Below, in pieces: positions 3,511 to 51,599 of a stretch of 64,000 nt of DNA. The DNA is from Callorhinchus milii (lineage: Eukaryota). A program made the translations under genes and the position numbers. Each line of letters begins with the position of its first letter. Within the stretch, counting starts at the first letter, position 1. Location of the stretch: the NCBI RefSeq assembly GCF_018977255.1, contig NW_024704742.1, positions 136,774,001 through 136,838,000 of the forward strand. The letters are read 5' to 3'. Below the pieces are notes generated by a model that saw nothing but the letters and a program-made list of their open reading frames with translations, searched no databases and had not been told where the DNA came from.

Positions 3511-4675
3511 CTTTTCAAATAGTGCCATGGAATCTTTAACACCCATCAGAACAAGGAGATGGGATCTAGGTTTAACATTTCATCCGAAGGATGGCGCTTC
3601 CAACAATGCAATACCTCTCCAGCAAAGCATTGGAGCGTCAGCTTAGTCTATGTGATTCGAAGACCCGATGTGGGGCTTGAACCCTTCCAGTCAGAGGCGA
3701 GAGCGCTATCACTGAGCCAGGTTGGCATGTCGGGACTTTGAACTCGGTCTAGGCTGACCAGCGAAGTATCAGAGATGCTGCCCTTTGGATGAACCAAGGC
3801 GGATATTAAAGATCTTGTGGCACTATTCAAAAAGAGAAGGGAGTTTCTCTTGGCCAAGAATCTCCCACATAAAATTGGTCAGTCACACAGGGCAAGGGCT
3901 GTTGTTGACAGGAATTAAGAGTCTGGAATGCTAGTGCAGCGCAGTACTAAAGAGAGCACTACAGTTATAGCTGCAAGTTATGAGTTGGAAATCCCACAGA
4001 ATCGCTTCGAGACATGATAGCCACTGTATCAGATGTTGGGATCATGTAATATTATTATTCCTTTTGAGAGATTTTGATAAGATGCTATAAAAAGGCAAGT
4101 TCTTTCTTACATTTGCTTTAATGAACCTTCATGACTGGTTTGACTCCGAAGGTAGCGAGTAGCGTACCAGGCTGGTATTCCCAGATCCGCAGTCTAAGAA
4201 TTGTCATATTGATCCAATCCTCGGTTAACAGATGTCAGTCGCTTTGGTCGGAGCTGGTTACACGATCACTCGCCCTGTCCTCTTTCTTTGTCAGTTAAGC
4301 AGGCAGCGTATCATTGACGGATCCATTTCACTATCTCTGATCGTCGACAGACTTGGAAGGAGCCTGGGAGAGAGGTCGCACAATACAGCAATTTCTTTGG
4401 AGAGATGAAACGGCCCCTTTCATTATTTATGAGGATGAGTCACTCATGATTGGAGCCTCGGCGACAAAGGCAGGGAGGGAGTGGGCCATGAATAATGGAG
4501 TGGCATATGATCGTCTCTCTCCAGTTCACAGTGTCAATGTTTCCCTTGTGTTGGGCCAACAATCTGCTCTTCATCTGAACCCTGCCCTGCTTAGAAAACC
4601 CAGATTGTTGTGAACTACTCAGAGAGTGCTTCGCTGCACTCCTTTCAAATACCAGTGTTTGTCCAGCTCAGTCGG

Positions 4676-5135
4676 CAACAATAACAACAAAAAGCACCTT
4701 TCACGTCGGGAGGACGTCCCAAGGCGCTGGACAGTCAGTGTTTCGGACCCGAGCTGAGGGTCAGATTGGGGAGGGTGGAGGGCAGTGTGGGAGAAGGTCT
4801 GCCCGCCAATTGGGGGGTGGGGTGCGAGGCGGGGGACGTGAAGCAGGCCAGTGCCCACTGAGCTGAGGGAGCAGGCAGGTTGGTAGGGGATTAGAAGGTC
4901 GCAGAGGTAGATGGGAGTAAGGCCGTGGAGGGCTTTGAAGACGAGGACCAGGATCTTGAACTGTACCCTATGTATGATGGGAAGCCAGTGGAGTCGGGCG
5001 AGGATGGAGTTGATAGGGTCACGGAGCCTGGTGAGGGAGAGAACGAGGTTGTAGATGATCTGCAGCCTCTGGAGGGAGGAGTTGGGGAGACCAACAAGCA
5101 GGGAGTTTGCATAGATGAGAGAGGAGGAGACAGGT
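4676..5135 (-). mobile_element. 5'-truncated L2 LINE (ORF2 C-terminus plus 3' tail)
   Basis: Peptide NSLLVGLP..LQRLQ..LARLHWLPI..RVQFKILVLVFKALHGLTPIYLCDLL; (GTT)n tail. Confidence 0.9.
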
Positions 5136-5856
5136 TCGAAGGTGTAAGAGGGAGGGATGGGTGGAGGCCGGGGTGTGAGGGGGAGATGAGAAGGGGATAG
5201 CGGTCGGAAGGACAGAGACAGCTGAGCAGATCCCTTCAACTTTGGTCTTGCCTGTGGTTTAGAAATGTGTGAATTCAGATTCGAACCCTATCCGTTGCTC
5301 GCAGTTGAGACTGAGACTCTTAACACTATCACTGAGCTGTGGGCAGAGCGGAGAAGGTGCCCTCGTTTCAGATGAGACGTTAAACTGAGCTCCCGCCTGT
5401 TCAGATGATCCTAAAACATCCCGTGAGTCAGAACTTAGAGAAGTTCGTCCAGTGTCCTGACCAACACATTGTTTGTAGGACATTGCCAGGAGGCATGTTT
5501 AACCTAAAATCATGGACTACTCCAGCAATAAGTAAGAACCAGGTTGTTAGTCAATTGGCGGATCGCTTTTCCGGGGCTACTTATCCCTTGAAAATAATAA
5601 TCCACAACTTTTGTGGGACACTGCTGTGAGCAATTGGCTGCTGTATTTCGCCCGCAAAATATACAGTGAATCCACTTTACAGTATATTCTGTGAAGAGCT
5701 TTGAGACGTCTCGATGACATGAAAAAGCTTCCACCTAAGTGCGTTGTAACAATGGGCAAAGAAGTGGCAGGACGGCAAAACAAGGAACCAAAATAGTTTG
5801 TTCCACTGAGGAACCAAATCAATTCCTAAAAATTTACAAAGTAATCAGTAGTATTA

Positions 5857-6140
5857 CAGACAACAACAATAAATTAAATTTGTATAGTGACTTTCATGTC
5901 CGAATTTGGACCTGAAGCTGGGGGTTGGGATCAGGAGGGTTGGAGGGCAGGGAGGGTGGGGGTAGGAGAGTGACCAAAGGTGCTGTCGAAGAGAACTTAA
6001 AACGGGTTTTGAAGGAGGCAAATGGGGGGGGGTGTGGGTGGGGGGGCGAGGTGAAGGGACTGTGGGATGGAATTCCAAAGGGTGAAGCAGAGAGGCTGAA
6101 GGCCTGACTGCCAATGGTGGGGTGGGCGGGGAACGTGCAC
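5857..6140 (-). mobile_element. L2 LINE 3' fragment
   Basis: PTIGSQAFSLSA peptide and the L2 tail, in reverse orientation. Confidence 0.8.
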
Positions 6141-6149
6141 CAGCCCAGA

Positions 6150-6700
6150 GCCTGCTGAGCTTTCAGAACTCTGCGGCTCGTGTACTGTCCCGCACCAGGC
6201 TTCGGGACCACATCACTCCCACCCTCGCTCGCCTCCACTGGCTCCCCATCCCCCAGAGGATCGAATTCAAGATCCTCATCCTCACCTACAAGGCCATTCA
6301 CGGCCTCGCTCCCTCCTACCTCTCCGACCTACTATCACCCTACTTACCCGCCCATACCCTCCGTTCCTCTGGCTCCGGTCTGCTCCACATCCCCCGCCCC
6401 AACCGCCCTACCATCGGTGGCCGGGCCTACAGCCTCTCAGCCCCGAGGCTCTGGAACTCCATCCTCCAGTGCCTTCGCCGCCTCCTCCCTTTCCTCCTTC
6501 AAGGCCGGTCTCAAGACCTTTCTCTTCAACCGTGCCTTCACCTCCCCTCTCGACTCTCAACCCCCTCCTCGCTCCATCCCTTCCCTCCCCTCACCCTGAC
6601 CATTTCCACCCTGCTGGGATCCCGACCCAACTATCCAGCGCCCTGGGACGTCCTCCCGACACGAAAGGCGCTCTATAAATGGAATCTTGTTGTTGTAGTT
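6150..6700 (+). mobile_element. 5'-truncated L2 LINE
   Basis: QNSAARVLSRTRLRDHITPTLARLHWLPIPQRIEFKILILTYKAIHGLAPSYLSDLL...APRLWNS; tail cagcgccctgggacgtcctcccgacacgaaaggcgctctataaat(gtt)n. Confidence 0.92.
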
Positions 6701-7654
6701 GAGCGGTCAAAACGATATGGAGTTAGCAGGTCACAGAGGTACGAGTAGGGAGGAGCAAGTTCCGTTTTAAAACAAAATGGTCTTGGAAGCCTATGGGGTA
6801 GGAACACCGCTAAGTGTTCCCCTAACCCAAGGTTAGCTGGACCGGTTGTAACACTGGAGGGTGCATGTCTATAATCTGTCTTTTGCTTCTGCTTTTGTAT
6901 GATAATAAATGGGGAAAGAGTCTGTTGAGCTAACAATAGACAAAGAAGTGGCAGGACAACAGAACAAGGAACCAAAACAAGGTTCCACTGAGAAACCATA
7001 TCAGTTCGTGGAAACTAACAAAGGATTCAGTGTTATTATGACCGGTCAAAAGAAGCTTTAGGCAGGTTGCACGTGAGATGGAGCCATCGTCTGTTCCTGC
7101 CTAATTATTGGGTGGGTGAGCGATAATTCCTGCCTCACACCTTTTCTGTGAAGCTCTCACTTTGACCAATAATTGTGGGACACCGCTGTACACGGCTGGC
7201 TGCCACGTTTCGCCCACAAAATATACGGTCAATTCACATTACAGTATATTCTGTGAAGCGCTTGGAGGCAACAACGACAACAAAATTACATTTGTATAGC
7301 GCCTTTCATGTCGGAAGGACGTCCCAACAGGACTCGAAGACACAATAAAGCATTATTTGAAATGCAAGGATTATTATTACATAAGGTGTGTTAATTAAAG
7401 GTGCGTTTCCGACAGATCTGGTTATTGCTGTAATGATCCTTGCATCTGAAAACACCTTATTTGGTGTCTGAAAATGCTTCACAAGATTTACTGTTAAGTG
7501 CAGTAAATTTTGTAGATAAATAACAATGTCCCACAAGTAAATGATCTGGGGGATTGTTGGCCAGGACACCGGGAGAGAGAAACTTCCTTCTCTTCCCTTT
7601 CGAGCCTTGCAATAGGATCGTTAACATCCACCTGAACAGACAGGTGGGAACCTT

Positions 7655-8020: not shown

Positions 8021-8190
8021 TTAGTGTATTAGCTCACCCGGCAATGCACGCTCCCCCCCCAGCACTGCACTGGAGTGTCAAGTTAGACTGTGAGCTAAAA
8101 GTTCCTGTCGTGGAGTATGAAAGCACAACCTTCTCACACGGCGCTGAGGGCACATCGCTTACCCTTTACTTATCTAATTTTTCACCACAG

Positions 8191-8340
8191 AAATTCCCAG
8201 AACTGAAGTTCAAGTACGTGGAGGAGGAGCAGCCAGAGGATTTTTTCGTGCCGTACATTTGGTCGCTGGCTTATAACTCCGCAGTCGGCCTGTACTGGAA
8301 CCCGCAGGAAATCCAACTCTTCACGATGGACTCTGGCTAA
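8191..8340 (+). CDS. DYM: Dymeclin, last coding exon ([49 protein letters not shown])
   Basis: Acceptor ...ctaatttttcaccacAG ends at 8190, phase 0. The translation is nearly identical to the vertebrate dymeclin C-terminus. TAA at 8338-8340. Adjacency to SMAD7 matches mammalian synteny. Upstream exons lie outside the window. Confidence 0.96.
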
Positions 8341-17640: not shown

Positions 17641-18145
17641 TCAACAACAACTACTTTCACTTATATAGCGTCCTTCGCGCCACATGGTGTCTCGGAGCAC
17701 AGTGGCGGAGCCCGATGCCGAGCCAGGGGAAGGGGGAAGGTACCCGCAGGCGTGGTCAAAGAGGAAGGTCTTCAAATCGACCTGAAAATGGGGAGAGAGG
17801 GTGCAAGGCGAAGGGATTGAGGGAGAGGGTTCCACACCTTCAGGGCGTAGTTGCTGAATGCACGGCTGCCTATGGTGGGGAGGAGGGTCCAGGGAACAAG
17901 GAGGAGGCCGGAGCCAGTCGAGTAGAGGCAGCGGATAGCGGAGGAGGGAGAGAGCAGGTTGGGGAGATGGATAAGGAGGCCGAGCCAGGGGGTGAAGATT
18001 TAAGATCTTGAAATTGATCCACTCTGTGACAAGGAGCCCTTTGACAAGGACTGGGGTAATTGGGGGTAAGGAGTTTAGTGCGGGTGAGAATGCGGGCGGC
18101 GGAGTCTAGAATTTTGTGAATAGTGGTGGAGGGGAGACCTGCGCG
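17641..18145 (-). mobile_element. L2-type LINE fragment (second subfamily)
   Basis: LRAGLPSTTIHKILDSAARILTRTK and DLKTFLFDHA peptides; (GTT)n tail. Confidence 0.8.
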
Positions 18146-26400: not shown

Positions 26401-26987
26401 AGAGATTTTCTTCTCTTTCTCCCCTAAAAGAATATTTTTCTCTCCCTCTCTCTGTGTGTGTGAGAGACAGATTTTTTTTTCCTTTTCCCCCTTAAAAGAA
26501 TATTTTTTCTCTCTCTCCCTCTGTGTGTGTGTGTGTGTGTGTGATTTTCTGTCCCCCCCCCCTCCTTCCCCCCCACACCACCCCACCCCCTTAAAAAAAA
26601 TTCCCCTTTTTATTTGCATGATTTTCTTTTGCTCTTTATAAAAAAAAGGAGACATTGGTGTGAGTGCGGGAGTGAGTGTGTGTGATTCTCTCTCCCTCCT
26701 TTTCCCCTTTATTTCCCCCCTGTCCCTCTCTTCCCTCCCCCCATTTTCCCCTTTATTCCCCCCCTCCCTCCTTTTCTCTCTCTCCCCCTCTCTCTCTCTC
26801 TCTCTATATATATTAAGTATATTATTAGTCAGGGGGCTGGTGTATGCTACACCTCTGTGCTGCCTTCGCTGTGTTGTGTCCACTGAGCCCTGGCTGGCTT
26901 CATGCTTTGCGGAGATGTTCCTTCTGCCCCGTCTGGTGGGATTGTAAGGCCTGCGAGCAGCTTAGCGAAGGGCGATCGAAGCCTCGC

Positions 26988-27468
26988 ATGTTCAGGACCA
27001 AACGCTCCGCTCTGGTCCGCCGTCTCTGGAGGAGCCACACGACCCTGGGAGGCGAGGCGGCTGAGGGCCAGCCAGAGAGCACCTCCCAGCCGGAGCCAGA
27101 GAGAGATACAAACGCACACACATGTTGCTGTGGGAAAACCTCCAAAGGCGCCGACCACGAACTCAAAGCCTTGACACACTCGTTGCTCAAGAGGCTCAAA
27201 GAGAAGCAGCTGCAGATCCTGCTCCAAGCTGTGGAGAGCAAAGGAGGCGCTGGCACCGGCTGCCTGCTCCTGCCCAGGATGCTAGACCCTAAACTCAGCA
27301 AACACACCTCCTACTCCCTACCTGTTCTCCTCTGCAAGGTGTTCCGCTGGCCTGACCTCAAGAGCTCCTCCGAGCTGAAGCGACTTTACTGCTGTGAGAT
27401 GTATGGGATCAACAGCACGGACTATTACTGCTGTAACCCACACCACCTCAGCAGGCTGTGTGAGCTGG
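26988..27468 (+). CDS. SMAD7: SMAD7 coding exon 1 (N-terminal/MH1-like region; MFRTKRSALVRRLWRS...CCNPHHLSRLCEL)
   Basis: ATG at 26988. The N-terminus MFRTKRSALVRRLWRS is SMAD7-type (SMAD6 has MFRSKRSG). LLCKVFRWPDL and CCNPHHLSRLC motifs present. Phase-1 donor G|GTGAGT at 27468/27469. Confidence 0.97.
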
Positions 27469-27679
27469 GTGAGTGTCTGGGAGGGAGGGAGGGGAGGCGA
27501 GGGGAGTGGGTTTCATTCAGTTCGGTCTTTGGGAACAAAGTTGTGTTCCAAAAGTTTTTAACCTTAAGAATTTGCTGAGCGAGAGAAGTCCCAAGGTTTC
27601 CCGTCCCATCTATTTCAGTTCGCCGGCTTTCCACCGTCCTGGCAGTCGCTTGACATGTCTGTGTCCCGAACTATTAGAC

Positions 27680-29665: not shown

Positions 29666-29719
29666 AATCCCCTCCACCGCCCTATTCCAAATTTCCAATG
29701 GAATTGCTCAAGCAACCTG
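29666..29719 (+). CDS. SMAD7: SMAD7 coding exon 2 (ESPPPPYSKFPMELLKQP; PY motif)
   Basis: Polypyrimidine tract plus cacAG acceptor, 54 nt, phase 1-1, donor G|GTAAGT. Contains the PPPY motif bound by Smurf/NEDD4-family WW domains. Confidence 0.96.
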
Positions 29720-32070: not shown

Positions 32071-33354
32071 TTTTTTTTAAAAGATTCAAGTTTAAGTCAA
32101 CTATTGCCTCTTAAAGGGGGTAGTGGGATAGTCATTGTCTTTACATTCCCCTGAGAAAATTCCATCCACTTCTACCCTCCCACCAGCCCCAAGACTTCAA
32201 ATTGGTTTAAAAAATTTAAGGTGGTGTAGATTTTGGGGGAAATAAAAAAAACTCTTAATTCTCAAGACGCATTTCCGAAGTTCTTAAGATTAACCTGGTT
32301 TCTGAATTAAGACTGAAGCAAAGAATTTTACATTACTTTCTGTGCTGTTTTATTATTATACGCCAATTATACCATAAATCATACTTGTATATTATAACTA
32401 TTTTATTTTACGCCAACAAATACACAGTCACTACACTTTGCAGTAAAATCCAGTGAAGCACTTTTTGAAGTGTCTCGATGAGGGTCTATATCAAACGCAA
32501 GGATTATTATTCTTATCATTATTATTATTATGGAAGAGGTAGATTTTAAGAGGCAGGTTAAGGCCAGGTAGAATTTGGGAGCTTGCGGTGTTTATGATGA
32601 AGTTCTTAAGTCAGCCACTAGGAGGCGTTGGTGAGTTGATCCTGGGGGTAGATTACGGAGGACAGGAGGGGTGTGGGAAGTGGGAGGGGGGTGGTGGGGG
32701 GTGTCAGGAGCTGTGTGATCTTCCCTTTTAACCTACCTGTGTGCAGAACAGACCCGCGCAAAACCTTGTCCCCGCCCCAGTCAGACGGGGCTCCCTCTCC
32801 CTCTCCCTCTCTCAGGCACCTACAGCGGCTGAGGATTTTGGCAAAGGTGGTTTAGGGGCTAAGACGCCAAACGACAATTAAACCACGAGGAACGCGGTGA
32901 AAAGGGCAAAGGGGGTGAGGGAACGGGTTGAGAGTTGAGACCTGGATGAGTCGTTGAACCGAGCTCCCGTTTGGCCGTCCAGGTGTGGGGGTTAAAGATC
33001 CCCACGGCGCTATTCGGAGAGAGAAGGGGTTAATTGACTGATTGGGTTTTCAGGACTTGGCTGATGTGTTGTGGTTCAGTCTCACGCTGGGCTGTGAGTG
33101 TACTGTGCTGATATGAGGGGTGGGGCTCAGAGTCCTGGGCTGATACACGGAGACAGGAGATATGAGTAATTAACATGAACTAATCTAATGTTAGATTCAA
33201 CGAAAATTACAATCCATTAAGAGAACACGCCTCGAGAAAGCTCCCACTGTGACACATCCAGTCCTGGCTCCTCACTAATGTGTCTGCTCAATGATCAGGC
33301 ACCTGAGATTATAGATCTCCACCCCCCCCCCCCCCCACCCCACTGGAGCTCTCT

Positions 33355-33610
33355 ACCCCATTCCCTGCTTCATCCCACAGTCCCTTCACCCTCACCGCCC
33401 CACTCTTGCCTCCTTCAAGACCCTTCTCAAGATCCTCCTCTTGGACCTTGCCTTCTGTCACCCCACTACCCCTTCTCCCCCCCCACCCCACCACCCCTCC
33501 GGATACAACCCTCCCCAGTTCGGGGTAAACCCTTAACTGTCCAGCGCCTTGGGACATCCTCTCAACATGAAAAGCAATGTATAAATGTAAATTGTGGCTG
33601 TTGTTGTCTT
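33355..33610 (+). mobile_element. L2 3' fragment ending about 90 nt upstream of SMAD7 exon 3
   Basis: Tail ccagcgccttgggacatcctctcaacatgaaaag...(gtt)n. Confidence 0.75.
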
Positions 33611-33702
33611 GAATGTTATTGTGGCTCAGAAGCTGCTATGAAAGTGTCCCGTGTGTAAAGAGCATAAAAGTTTCTAACTTTGCTTTGGCTTCTCTCTGAC
33701 AG

Positions 33703-33776
33703 CGGACTCCCCCAACCCTCCCCCATCCTCCACTGAAACTGGGGGCCCTCACTACACAGCCCCGATGGCCTCTCAG
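33703..33776 (+). CDS. SMAD7: SMAD7 coding exon 3 (ADSPNPPPSSTETGGPHYTAP...), 74 nt, apparent 1-nt deletion
   Basis: Acceptor tctctctgacAG at 33701-33702 and donor CAG|GTAAGA at 33776/33777. The peptide aligns with mammalian ADCPDAVPSSAETGGTNYLAPGGLS. The length is one base short of in-frame. Confidence 0.9.
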
Positions 33777-34403
33777 GTAAGACACAACTTCATCTTAGAG
33801 CTTCTGGGGCAGCACTGCTGAGGCAGCTGTGGGGGGCGGCGGGTGGGGTGGGGCGGGGGAATACATTTACCCTCTGGGGGTGCTATCTGTGTAGAGTGTG
33901 GTACTCACAATGTGTGCTCTCCTGTGTGAAGATTTCTATATAAAAGCTAGTTGTTTGCCTGTGCTCTCAGAGTACAGTGTGGTACAAACTGAGTGTACAG
34001 CGCAGGTAACCAGAGCTCCCACATGTCATTGTGTACGTGTGTACATGTGTATGTTTATGTTTGGTGGGGTAGAGCGTGATACCAACACCCAATTACAAGC
34101 AGATGCGTATTGCCCACAAAATACACAGTCAATTGACTTTACATTATTGTTAATACAAGCGCTCTGAGACGTCTCAATGCTGTGATAAGGCGCTGTATCA
34201 AACAAAAGGATTATTGGTTGCGGCGGGATCTGGTGTGAACACACGCTCCCCGTGGCTCCGGGTTGAGATTGTTTGCGTGTAGTGACTGTACCTGCCAGTC
34301 ATGTAGGTGTGTGTGTGTGTGTGTGTGTTGGAGGTGGCGCAATGTCACTTCAATATGAATGGGTGTGTGTTCGCCTGTCTACACGTTGGCTTTGCCTGTG
34401 TGC

Positions 34404-34443
<40 letters not shown>

Positions 34444-35274
34444 GTCATGTTGGGGGAGACGCTGACTGGGGAGTGAAGTGATTTCACAGGATTTACTGGA
34501 AAGCGTGGTGGCTGTGTGTTTTGTAGGCGAGAGCGGCAGCCAAGTTAAACCAACTCCCACGAGGCAGATGACCAATTTTATGTGGGTGGGGTGGGGTGTG
34601 GAGCGGGTAGTGTTGTCGGTCAGGACTCCGGGAGAAACTCTTTTTACTAGAGAGTCAAAACGTTGACCCGAAGAGACCCAGGCGGGAGGGAGGGGGGGCA
34701 GTTTATAGTCTCATCTCAAAGATGGCAACTCTCAACAATGTGTCGCCAACCCCCCCCCCCTCCTTTCCTCCCCCCCCCCCCCCCGAGAGAAAAAGCGAGA
34801 GAGTTAAAGCTGGAAAGAGCTCTTTAAGGAACGGTTTTTATGTCTTAAGATCAGAGAGAGAGAGTGGTGTGTGTATGTAGTGGGGTGGAGTGTGTGTATG
34901 TGAGAGTGTGTGCGTGAGGGGAGACGGAGTGTATGGGGGGAATGTGTGTGTGTGTGTGGAGGGGGGGGAGAGAGCACGTGTGTGTTTGGGGGGTGGGGAG
35001 TGTAAGAGCGAGTACAGGCGGGTACTTTGGCAGCACATTAAATAGCCACAGAGGAAGCTGCAGCTTAAATAAAATAGAAAGGGCTCTTTTTAAGAAAAAT
35101 GCTTTTCGGCCGTTGATACGATCTGTGTGTCTGGGGAGGGAGAGTGTGTGTCAGGGCGGTGGGGGTGGGGACGGAGAGCCTCAGGAAACATGCCCAGGTG
35201 CTGGAAGGTTAGGCTCGGGGATGGGGGTTGGGGGGGGGGGTCACTAAGATTAGGAGACCTTTTCCCTCCCCAAA

Positions 35275-35620
35275 CACACACTCCCTTCCCCACATACACG
35301 CCTCTCCACATACACACTCTCCCCTCTCCACACACACACACCGACCGACACCTCTCCACATACCCACACACACACACGCCCCTCCCCACATACACAGCTC
35401 TCCACATATACACACCGCACACACTCCCCTCCCCACACATACACACCTCTCCACATACACACTCTCCCCTCTCCACACACACAACGACACCTCTCCACAT
35501 ACCCACACACACACCTCTCCGCACACACACACTCCTCTCCCCACATACACACCTCTCCGCATATACACACTGCACACACTCCCCTCCCCACACACATCTC
35601 TCCACACACACACACTACCC
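35275..35620. repeat. CA/CT-rich degenerate minisatellite
   Basis: Repeated cctctccacatacacac / actcccctcccca units. Confidence 0.8.
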
Positions 35621-36304
35621 CCCCCCCGCGCCCCAGCCCCAGCCCAGGCTGGGATCTGAAAGCCACCAGACTGCTGGTGTGGAATTTCATCCCTGTTAAA
35701 AAAATATGCTTGCAAAAACAGATTTTTTTATACCGTTCTTTCTTTCTCTGCCTCACTTTCTCTCTCCCTCCTTCCCTAACACCCCCCCTTCTCTTTCTCT
35801 CCCTCCCCTCTCTCTCTCTCTCTCTCCTTCGTTCCTTCCTTCTCTCACCCTACCGGGGGCTTCCTGTATAAAATAACACATCCCTCTCTCCCTGATCACT
35901 GAGTTGAGTTGGGAGACTGGGGCGGGCGGAGGGGGGGGTGGGAGGGACACTGTTGAAGTCCCAGCCTATGTTTGGCACAAGTTTGGAGTTTGCTATTTTG
36001 TGGGTTTCTAACCTCACAGGATGTGTTTCTCTATCGCAGCAGAAACGGGGAGGGGGGGTGCGGTGGCGAGGGGAGAGGGAGGGAGGGGAAGGGGGCTTTT
36101 GCCTTTGCTCAGTTTGTAGCAGGATATTTCGGCTCGTTTAAGAAAAAAACACAAAGCAATGCTTGTGTTTTCTCTCAGTCTCTCTCTCTCTCCCACACAC
36201 TCCCTCACATACTCGCGCTCAGCTCACACAGTCTCTCTCCCTTTCTCTCCCCCTGAAGTCAGACCAGCTCAGTGCTGACGGGGGGGGGGGGGTGGGGGGA
36301 AGCA

Positions 36305-37399: not shown

Positions 37400-37965
37400 T
37401 CCTCTCCCCGTCCCTCCCTCCCTCCCACCGCTCTCACTTTCTCTCCTCCCCTCCCCCACAATCTCCTCTCCCATCCTCTCTCTCCCCCTCACCCTTTATT
37501 TCCTCCCTTCCTTCCTTCCATCCCTCCCTCCCTCCCTCCCATCACCTACTCTTCACCCCCCGCAACTCTTCCCGTCTCTCCCTCGCTCTCTCTCGCTCAT
37601 CCTATTCTTCACTCCCTCCCTCTCTCCCTTCCTCCCTCCTCTCTCTCATTTCCTCACTCACTCCCTCCTCTCACTCCTCTTCCCTTCGCTCACTCCCTCG
37701 CTCTCTCCCTCTCTCACTCCCTCTCTCACTCCTTTTCCCGTCGCTCACTCTCTCGCTCACTCTCTGCCTCTCTCGCTCCTCATCCCTTCTCTCCCTCCCT
37801 CCCTCCCTCCCTCCATCTCTCCCTCCCTCCCTCCCTCCATCTCTCACTCCCTCCTTCTTTCTCTCACTCCCTTCTTCATTCTCTCCCTCCCTCGTTCTCT
37901 CTCTCAATCCCTCTCCCACTGCTCGTCCCCTCTCTCACTCCCTCCATCCCTCTCCCTCTCTCACG
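37400..37965. repeat. Polypyrimidine (CT-rich) low-complexity tract of about 560 bp
   Basis: Almost exclusively C/T on the + strand. Confidence 0.9.
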
Positions 37966-42495: not shown

Positions 42496-43454
42496 AGAGT
42501 TCTGGATTCCTGTCATTTTACGGTGCGTTTTTGATGTAAAAAGCTATTAAAATTAATGCGTTACAGACCCCTCTGCCCTTCCTCACTCCTCCCCTCCTTA
42601 TGTTCGTTCCCTCTTCCCCTTCCCTCCGTAATGATGGGAGCCAGCGAGAAGCTGGGCTGAGGTTTACGAGGGGCACAGTTAAGGGGGGAGAGCGAGAGAG
42701 AGGGGGGCAGCAAAGGGAGAGAGAGAGAGACGGCTTCTAAAGTGATGGGCTCGTGGCTCGATGATTTTGCTCTGTCTCTCTCTCTCTCTCTCCCTCTCTC
42801 TCTCTCCGCACCCCCTCCCTCCCTCATGGGCCCTCAGAGCTAACATTAAACAACATAAGCTCCTCAGCCAGGACTGTTAAGCAAGCGGCGAGTTAGTAAA
42901 ATATTGATGTGTGTGTGTGTGTGCGTGTGTACGTACGCGTCATGTTCTTACATTAATTATTGAGACTGAAGCTACAGTTAGTTACAGGGCACAAAGGCTT
43001 CTCGCTGAGCCTGGCAGCCAGGTTAATACACAGCCCCCACCCACCGCAGCCTGTCCGTGCCCACCGAGGAGGGGAGGGGAACGAGGGGAGGCTGGGCTTC
43101 ACTGGGTGCGGGTGGGGAGGTAGAGGTGGGGACATTTGTAATTAATACAACTACCATTATGTACCCAGCAGAAAGGGAGACGGAGTAAGAGAGTCACGGG
43201 TCGAAAGGGACAGACACACAGAGGGAGAGAAACAGACGCAGAGCGAGATAGGGAGATGAACAGATATAGAACGGGAGAGAAGGGTATGGAGGGAAAGAGA
43301 TAGGTACAGAGGAGAGGGAGAGGAACAGACACAGAGTAAAAGAGCCAGACACAGAGGTAGAGACACAGACACAGAAGGAAAGAGAGAGGCACAGAGGGAT
43401 AGAGACTTAGAGAGGGATAGACACAGAAGGAAAGAGAGAGAGAGCGGGACAAAA

Positions 43455-43775
43455 GGGAAAGAGAGATAGAGAGGGACACAGAGGGAAAGAGAGATAGAGA
43501 GGGATAGACACAAAGGCAAAGAGAGATAGAGAGGGATAGATACAGAGGCAAAGAGAGATAGAGAGGGGATAGACACAGAGGGAAAGAGAGATAGAGAGGG
43601 ATAAATACAGAGGGAAAGAGAGATAGAGAGGGATAGACACAGAGGGAAAGAGAGATAGAGAGGGATAGATACAGAGGGAAAGAGAGATAGAGAGGGATAG
43701 ACACAGAGGGAAAGAGAGATAGAGAGGGATAGATACAGAGGGAAAGAGAGATAGAGAGGGATAGACAGAGGGAAA
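43455..43775. repeat. 32-bp minisatellite (AGACACAGAGGGAAAGAGAGATAGAGAGGGAT), about 10 copies
   Basis: Units start at 43571, 43603, 43635, 43667, 43699 and 43731; flanks are degenerate from about 43200. Confidence 0.92.
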
Positions 43776-45094
43776 GGGAACAATACAGAGAGAAAGAGAT
43801 AGACACAGAGCATCAGAGAGACCCACAGACATGTGTATGCATGTACATATTTAATAGTAATCATAATACTTGCATTTGATATAGTGCTGACTTTGAGGCG
43901 TCTGAAAGCGCTTCACGGGATATACTGTAAAGTGTAGTGACTGTATATTTTGTGGGTAAAACGCGGCGGCCAAATATGCACAGCGGCGTCCCGCAGACAG
44001 TCGCGGTTTGAAGCGACCAAATTATTTTAATTATAATATTATTTGCATTACATATCATTGAAGTCTAGATTAGGTGTGAACAAGAGCGTGCGCGCGCGTT
44101 TGTGTGTGTGTGTGTGTGTGAGTGCGTGCGGGTTTGCGTGCAGGCCTGGTTTTATGCCTGTGTTTGTGTGTGCGCTTGTGTGCGCACATCCTTTTATTTG
44201 TGTAAACACAGGAGATAATGGGAGGGTGAGGGCTGCGGTGAGGTGACAGGGCACGTGTGAGGCTTGGCTGATTGATGCACTCTGGCCCAGTGCCTGGGAA
44301 TGGTTTCCTCAGCCCTGAAACACACGTCAGTCAGCCCAGCCACATGTGTCTTGCAGCTCAGCTCAGTCTTGTAAACATTTACCTTATAATGTGGTGGTGT
44401 GTGTGTATGTATGTGTGTGTGTGTGTGTGGGTGTGTGAGTCTCTGAGAAAGGCGTCAGCTTGGATTAGTCCCTGCAACCTCTCACCTCCCAGTCGGGATA
44501 TTACTAATCATCCTTGCATTTGACATGATCACGTCTTCGAGATGTCTCAAAGCGCTGGACAGGATATACTGTGAAGTGGAGTCACTGCGCACGTTGTGGA
44601 TGAAACGCGGCAGCCGATCGCGTACAGTGGTGTCCCACAAACAGATTCATCGATTGATTGCGAAGGAAGCACTTTGAAATGTTGTTTCGCCCACAAAATA
44701 AAGTCAACGCACTTTACAGTATATCCCGTGGAGCGCATTGAGACATCTCCGGTCCGTGATAAGGCGCTGTATCAAACGGAGGGATTAGTGGAGTCAAGTA
44801 ACATAAGAGGCTACTTTTTTGTTAAAAAAAAGGTGGTCGCTCAATCCACGGCTGTTTGTGGGACAATGCTGTGTGAAATTGGCTGCCGCAATTCGCCTAC
44901 AAAATATACGGTCACTACACTTCATTGCCAGTGATTTATTTACTCCGTGAATCCCCTTGAGAGGTTCAAACGACATGATGAGGCACCATATCAAATGCAT
45001 GGATTATTATTGTTGTAGAATTATTATAGTGGTGAATGTGGTTGTTATTTAACGGCTAACCATCTCTCTCTCTCTCCCTCTTGTTCCCGTGTAG

Positions 45095-45633
45095 ATTCCC
45101 GAATAAGCCAGGAGTTGGGGAGCCGCGCTCACTGGTGTGTGGTGGCTTACTGGGAGGAGAGGACTCGGGTTGGCCGGCTGTACACGGCACAGGAACCCTC
45201 CCTCGACATCTTCTATGATCTACCTCACGGGAACGGCTTCTGCTTGGGGCAGCTGAACTCGGACAACAAGAGCCAGCTGGTCACTAAAGTCCGCAGGAAG
45301 ATAGGCTACGGGATTCAGCTGAGCCGGGAGCGAGACGGAGTCTGGGTGTATAACCGCAGTCACTACCCCGTCTTCATCAAGTCCGTGACTCTGGATAACC
45401 CCGACTCCAGGACATTGCTGGTGCACAAGGTGTATCCAGGCTACTCCATCAAGGCTTTTGACTATGAGAAGTCCTGCAGCTTACAGAGGCCGAACGACCA
45501 CGATTTCACACACGAACCTTGGTCGGGCTACAGTGTGCAGATCAGCTTTGTGAAGGGATGGGGCCAGTGTTACACCAGGCAGTTTATCACCAGCTGTCCA
45601 TGCTGGCTCGAAGTGTTCTTTAACAACCGATGA
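45095..45633 (+). CDS. SMAD7: SMAD7 coding exon 4 (MH2 domain; DSRISQELGSRAHWCVVAYWEE...PCWLEVFFNNR*)
   Basis: Polypyrimidine tract plus gtgtAG acceptor at 45093-45094, phase 1. HWCVVAYWEE and SFVKGWGQCYTRQFI motifs present. No C-terminal SSXS, as expected for an inhibitory Smad. TGA at 45631-45633. Confidence 0.98.
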
Positions 45634-50695: not shown

Positions 50696-50865
50696 GTATC
50701 GATTAATAGAGATTAGGATACTTGATAAATTATGGAACCACAGATGGCTGGGAGATGTCAGTCTGACCTCAGCTCATTGCAAACACAACACTCAGGAAGA
50801 TGCTCAGCTTATTGGTGGATTAGCCCTCAGCCTGTGGCTGCCTCCTCGAACACTCGCGTCTGGGT

Positions 50866-51240
50866 CAAAAACAACAACAAATCACACTTACACGGCGTCT
50901 TTCACATCTGGTGGACATCCCAAGGTGCTGGACAGTCAGGGATTTCGATCCGAGCTGGGGGTTGGGATCAGGAGGGAAAGGAGGGTGGGGGTAGGAGATT
51001 GACCGATGGCGGGGTTGAATAGAAGGGTCTTGAGATGAGCTTTGAAGTGACGGACCCCGTTCCCCCCTTTGGCCAAAGGAGAGGGCGAGACAAAGGGACT
51101 GTGGAATGGGGTTCAAGAGGGTGGGGGCAGAGAGGCTGAAGACCTGTCCGCCGATGGTGGGGCGGGCCGGCCAGGGCCTAAGGAGCAGGCCAGAGTTCGT
51201 TGAGTGGAGGGAGCGACCAGGTCTGTACGGAGTTAGCAAA
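50866..51240 (-). mobile_element. L2 3' fragment
   Basis: LTPYRPGRSLHSTNSGLL..PTIGGQVFSLSAP peptide and tail. Confidence 0.85.
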
Positions 51241-51599
51241 TTCAGGCCGGAGGCTTTGAGTTCACACAGAGCTGGTGGTTGGGGTGGGGGGTGCGGGGTG
51301 GGGGCAGCTTTATTGTCAGAGGTGCTGTGTTTCAGAAGTGATATTAAACTGAGGTCCCGCTGTGCCAGTTCAGGAAGTAATTCTCACAGCGCTATTGGCA
51401 AAGAGAAGTGGCTGACAATCCCCCCAATAAAATTGGTTCTTCATTTCACAGCTGTTTGTGGGTCACTGCGGTCAAGTTAACTGGTCAATTCTTCGGCACA
51501 GGAAAGTGTGTATGCGCATTTAATGTGTATGTGTGTGTTAACGTGTGAGCATGTGTGTAACTGTGTGCCTGTGTGTATGTATGTGTCTAGCTTGGCGAT

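Follow-up and report, generated by a model that had tools for sequence, protein, structure and literature searches.

A four-exon SMAD7 gene in the window

The window, the whole stretch of 64,000 nucleotides of Callorhinchus milii DNA that we analyzed, contains a four-exon SMAD gene on its forward strand, whose exon coordinates and phases were computed (Table 1). Pfam searches placed an MH1 domain (PF03165, E value of 1.6e-29) in exon 1 and an MH2 domain (PF03166, E value of 9.3e-54) in exon 4. The MH2 domain continues the reading frame of the upstream exons given an exon 3 of 75 nucleotides (nt), but not in the letters of the assembly. Exon 2 encodes PPPPY, a PY motif in the linker between the two domains, and the predicted protein ends in FFNNR, without an SSXS phosphorylation motif. 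Both a PY motif in the linker and the lack of a C-terminal SSXS motif are features of SMAD7.

Among the matches listed, exon 4 shared 92 to 93% identity over its whole length with shark and ray SMAD7, about 80 to 83% with most bony-vertebrate SMAD7 proteins, and about 64 to 67% with SMAD6. Furthermore, in an MH2 tree of 18 sequences (11 SMAD7 and 6 SMAD6 sequences, hand-picked, plus that of the window), the window sequence fell on the SMAD7 side with a support of 100/100, adjoining the cartilaginous fishes. A C-terminal coding exon of dymeclin (PF09742, E value of 1.2e-9) was found at 8170-8337 (about 8170-8340), on the same strand and some 18.6 kb upstream of SMAD7, as expected of a true SMAD7 orthologue. 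DYM adjoins SMAD7 in the human genome, and Dymeclin and SMAD domains are fused in two teleost records (P0110 and P0114). The exon 3 region gave a single match in its own genome, in a search that passes over repeats and gives scores to the top candidates alone. All defining features tested were found, and the locus carries an intact, ordinary SMAD7 with four exons, from a cartilaginous fish. Inhibitory SMADs exert feedback inhibition on TGF-beta/BMP receptor signalling, and by orthology the protein encoded here probably acts in the same way.

Searches for a public SMAD7 protein of this organism gave no near-identical match, either with exon 4 (best identity of 93% among the 120 matches listed, of 313 to 2000 amino acids) or with exon 1 (best identity of 68% over 70% of the query among 83 matches, of 88 to 280 amino acids). 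The exact exon 4 peptide was absent from the protein collection searched, with 15 of the 22 members of two clusters listed.

Table 1. Features of the SMAD7 locus, in positions of the window
Feature	Position	Strand	Remarks
SMAD7 coding exon 1 (MH1 domain)	26988-27468	+	481 nt, ends in phase 1; open frame, donor GT at 27469
SMAD7 exon 2	29666-29719	+	54 nt, phase 1 to 1; PY motif PPPPY; 3' end coincides with the upstream loose end of each spliced contig
SMAD7 exon 3	33703-33776	+	74 nt as assembled, 75 nt in the runs; boundaries confirmed by the spliced contigs of X1 and X3
C run, highly probable error site	33760-33763	+	four C in the assembly, five C in 4/4 runs
SMAD7 coding exon 4 (MH2 domain)	45095-45633	+	open frame, stop TGA at 45631-45633; entry at 45095 from spliced contigs
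Spurious stop TAA	45104-45106	+	in frame only if exon 3 has 74 nt; out of frame with a 75-nt exon
CAG/GAG, possible rescue acceptors for a 74-nt exon	45109-45114	+	phase computed; unused in the contigs seen

Several repeats surround these exons. Dispersed repeats with similar peptide frames, which we presume to be LINE-like peptide remnants, lie at 4619-6748, 17641-18105, 33349-33607, and 50865-51383, and the third of these stops some 100 bases before exon 3. Intron 3 harbors long low-complexity arrays rich in CA, CT, and AG (35264-35625, 37502-37964, and 43313-43810).

Exon 3, frameshifted in the assembly and intact in the sequencing runs

As assembled, exon 3 runs from an acceptor AG at 33701-33702 (CAG, after a pyrimidine tract) to a donor GTAAG at 33777, and its length is 2 modulo 3. 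Joining the exons in this state leads into the TAA at the start of exon 4 and yields a protein of 206 amino acids without MH2. The initial annotation of this DNA had described the short exon and the shift to this stop, and all of its coordinates hold. It had also proposed that the CAG at 45109-45111 would restore the frame; our phase computation agrees, and the GAG at 45112-45114 would do so too (exon 4 entries at 45112 and 45115, respectively). No alternative splice site giving an exon of 75 nt was found among all AGs from 33640 and all GT or GC dinucleotides up to 33900. The in-frame upstream AGs (entries at 33645 and 33663) lack a pyrimidine tract and were rejected, as were the in-frame downstream donors, which are GC or weak GT sites and would give exons of at least 114 nt.

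A search with exon 1 identified 13 sequencing runs, all from one organism and belonging to 4 studies, that contain the exon 1 stretch. Four of them were compared with the window over positions 33610 to 34100, a reference chosen to avoid the long intron repeats: X4 and X9 (two samples of study P3, each of about 900 million letters), X3 (study P2), and X1 (study P1), representing 4 samples and 3 studies. The runs were compared as contigs, in which rare variants are dropped and a heterozygous indel may collapse, and no run is tied to the assembled animal. All four carried one extra C behind position 33759, and the depth of this insertion equaled the total depth in every run (10.6 in X4, 5.19 in X9, where the contig is shallow, 117.8 in X3, and 67.5 in X1). 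The matched span was one letter longer in each record than in the window (76/75, 76/75, 212/211, and 383/382). Over these 491 bases, the contigs of the four runs showed no four-C form, and no other indel or substitution relative to the window was listed.

None of the 13 runs is recorded as RNA, and whether a run represents DNA or RNA was judged from its contigs, which either span introns or are spliced. Those of X4 and X9 continue into the flanking introns (33610-33820 and 33719-34100) without any other letter. Because they match unique flanking intron without a difference, they derive from this locus, and we infer that both runs behave as its genomic DNA. The alignment of X3 and X1 is confined to 33702-33776, and their loose ends correspond to the close of exon 2 and to the beginning of exon 4 (from 45095), not to introns; these two runs thus appear to behave as spliced mRNA. 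X3 extends 761 letters beyond the exon 3/4 joint and X1 only 12. On the right of the insertion X1 has 30 letters, one below the 31-letter bridging rule, leaving three of the four runs, from two studies, as full witnesses. The X1 contig, of depth 67.5, stops at 45106; this may point to a branch of the assembly graph (a variant, an error, or a minor splice form).

The corrected protein and its homologues

With five C, exon 3 has 75 nt, the reading continues as ...TAPDGLS-D across the joint with exon 4, and a SMAD7 of 382 amino acids results. Of the two residues left open in the initial annotation, which had read AP(D/M)GLS-D, it is thus the aspartate that stands here (APDGLSD). The linker between MH1 and MH2 then has 63 residues, equal to that of shark SMAD7. 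We compared four models of the protein, namely as assembled, as supported by the reads, with exon 3 skipped, and with the acceptor entering exon 4 at 45112. The 75-nt model gave the best alignment score against all nine proteins tried; against P0149, the scores were 1625 for the read-supported model, 1575 for the 45112 acceptor, 1502 for skipping, and 677 for the gene as assembled.

The motif AP.GLS[DE] was found at the exon 3/4 joint in 30 of 32 named shark and ray SMAD7 records (P0006 left out), which include several isoforms per species and are not independent. The two exceptions are a partial record ending at the joint and a short record without the region. Among 149 homologue records, SMAD6 included, the linker measured 62 or 63 residues in 89, 38 residues in 12, 57 residues in 1, and another length in 34, while 13 were without landmarks. 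The linker of 38 residues is that of a protein lacking exon 3, all 12 records being database gene models. A shifted ending of the ASQ type was present in none of the 149.

Exon 3 starts with CGG after the acceptor CAG (33700-33705), and the runs list no other letter here. At this joint, isoform pairs of the relatives differ by one residue (62 or 63 in the linker); a tandem acceptor in these species, which would be absent from the window, could account for this. Within exon 3, an internal CAG (33757-33759) would, with five C, leave an in-frame mini-exon of 18 nt, and there was no sign of its use.

At the other end of the gene, an in-frame ATG precedes the usual MFRTKRS start by 48 codons (26844-26987, + strand), with no stop in between. 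The extension starting at 26844 aligns with extensions of 43 to 45 residues in shark and ray SMAD7 records. In-frame extensions were also found in turtle, lizard, snake, and several other records; many start with ML[QH] and share an LPGLGSR.LH.LRT core, and their lengths vary while the frame is kept. The X1 contig would reach about 26832 if it were co-linear with the window. Both ATGs stand in a poor context, with a pyrimidine at -3, and mammalian Smad7 is listed among the genes with a conserved poor-context start (PMC8892498). The similarity may reflect a conserved N-terminally extended form of SMAD7, or only a conserved 5' untranslated region caught by longest-ORF gene calling. An N-terminally extended form is not described among the 4 literature matches.

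An almost certain assembly error and its alternatives

Independent sequencing data contain the letter that the assembly lacks and show an intact gene with normal splicing. We therefore conclude that the SMAD7 frameshift is almost certainly a one-base error of the assembly, in which five C were written as four (probability of about 0.96). The indel sits in a homopolymer, the assembly is contradicted by sequence of the same organism in all four runs compared, from three studies, and further coding decay is absent, exons 1, 2, and 4 being open and conserved. This bears out the main inference of the initial annotation, which had favored an assembly indel and had set reads with an extra C or G (an exon of 75 nt) as the sign of one: the extra C falls inside the stretch it had named. 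The assembly consensus would have under-called the exon 3 homopolymer by one base, presumably through a long-read miscall of homopolymer length that survived polishing; the contiguity of the assembly (992 Mb in 1762 contigs) would fit a long-read origin. According to a study on bacterial nanopore data, most indel errors in long-read assemblies are associated with homopolymers, with deletions most frequent where four to five identical bases precede (PMC12007338).

Homopolymers are also true sites of slippage mutation. The assembled animal could have truly carried a one-base deletion allele, most plausibly in the heterozygous state as considered in the initial annotation, with the consensus taking that haplotype. 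The four C of the window would be explained, and no reads could be identified as those of the assembled individual. Nevertheless, this is very unlikely: none of the four runs shows the four-C form, the assembly holds only one copy of the region and no second haplotype, and the rest of SMAD7 is without decay. In addition, deletion of the MH2 domain of mouse SMAD7 leads to heart-cushion defects (PMC3046253, citing its ref. 17), and since such a deletion is harmful in the mouse, SMAD7 null alleles should be rare. We thus see only a slim chance that the animal was a natural carrier of a C5-to-C4 slippage allele. If it was, the allele would encode an MH1-plus-linker protein of 206 amino acids without MH2, with the stop of its mRNA in the last coding exon. 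The mRNA might for this reason escape decay and make the MH2-less protein, or use of the tandem acceptors, with entries at 45112 and 45115, might rescue the allele in part.

The 74-nt exon could also have been the true state of the species, compensated by splicing, either through entry into exon 4 at 45112 or 45115 (376 amino acids for 45112) or through skipping of exon 3 (357 amino acids). Both routes keep the frame, and records without exon 3 do exist among the database gene models of other vertebrates (the 12 of 149 with the 38-residue linker). The sequencing runs contradict this reading, which we regard as having a negligible probability: exon 3 measures 75 nt in the two contigs that span introns and in the two spliced ones, it is included in the latter, and it joins exon 4 at 45095. 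No homologue has the shifted ending either. Splicing compensation as the norm of the species is refuted, and the entry at 45112 that had been suggested from the sequence at the outset has no support in the spliced contigs. Exon 3 skipping, the other route suggested then, is not required to explain the data, both spliced contigs including the exon; a minor skipped form would not be visible on this reference and could exist, as gene models suggest for birds, teleosts, and mammals. Hardly any weight, finally, can be given to the gene being a recent pseudogene with a working second copy elsewhere from which the reads come. Nothing beyond the frameshift itself speaks for it, while the exon 3 region matches once in its own genome, the DNA-like contigs follow the unique flanking intron of this locus without another letter, and the dymeclin exon lies upstream as for a true orthologue. 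A pseudogene with a hidden paralogue is thereby refuted, unless an unassembled near-identical duplicate exists.

The assembly error being by far the best reading, our finding is a correction only, with no new biology, and the lesion is not to be taken as a real feature. Annotation from the assembly letters alone would call SMAD7 truncated or lost in this lineage of cartilaginous fish, or would lead to a made-up splice form that compensates for the shift. The C run at 33760-33763 should be corrected, and isolated frameshifts in other homopolymers of the assembly need a check against reads before gene loss is claimed. A SMAD7 frameshift or loss in cartilaginous fish was not reported among the literature matches listed (for one of the queries 10 of 932, so that this negative is not thorough).

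Three known systems can be set beside these data. The MH2-deletion allele of mouse Smad7 (PMC3046253) keeps exons 1 to 3 and loses the MH2 domain of exon 4, which is what the lesion would mimic if it were real. However, the mouse allele was engineered, whereas the lesion here is absent from the sequencing runs. The errors described in PMC12007338 resemble the present case: there, too, a single-base deletion in a run of five bases breaks an otherwise conserved gene, and independent sequence disagrees. Those cases are bacterial nanopore assemblies. Finally, the gene shares with vertebrate SMAD7, the nearest shark and ray records being, e.g., XP_067886397.1 and XP_072353541.1, the MH1 domain, the PY motif, an exon 3 of 25 codons, the MH2 domain in exon 4, the 63-residue linker, and the NNR end. 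It differs from them only by ordinary divergence, with APDGLSD here, APGGLS[DE] in sharks, and APEGLSD in Xenopus.
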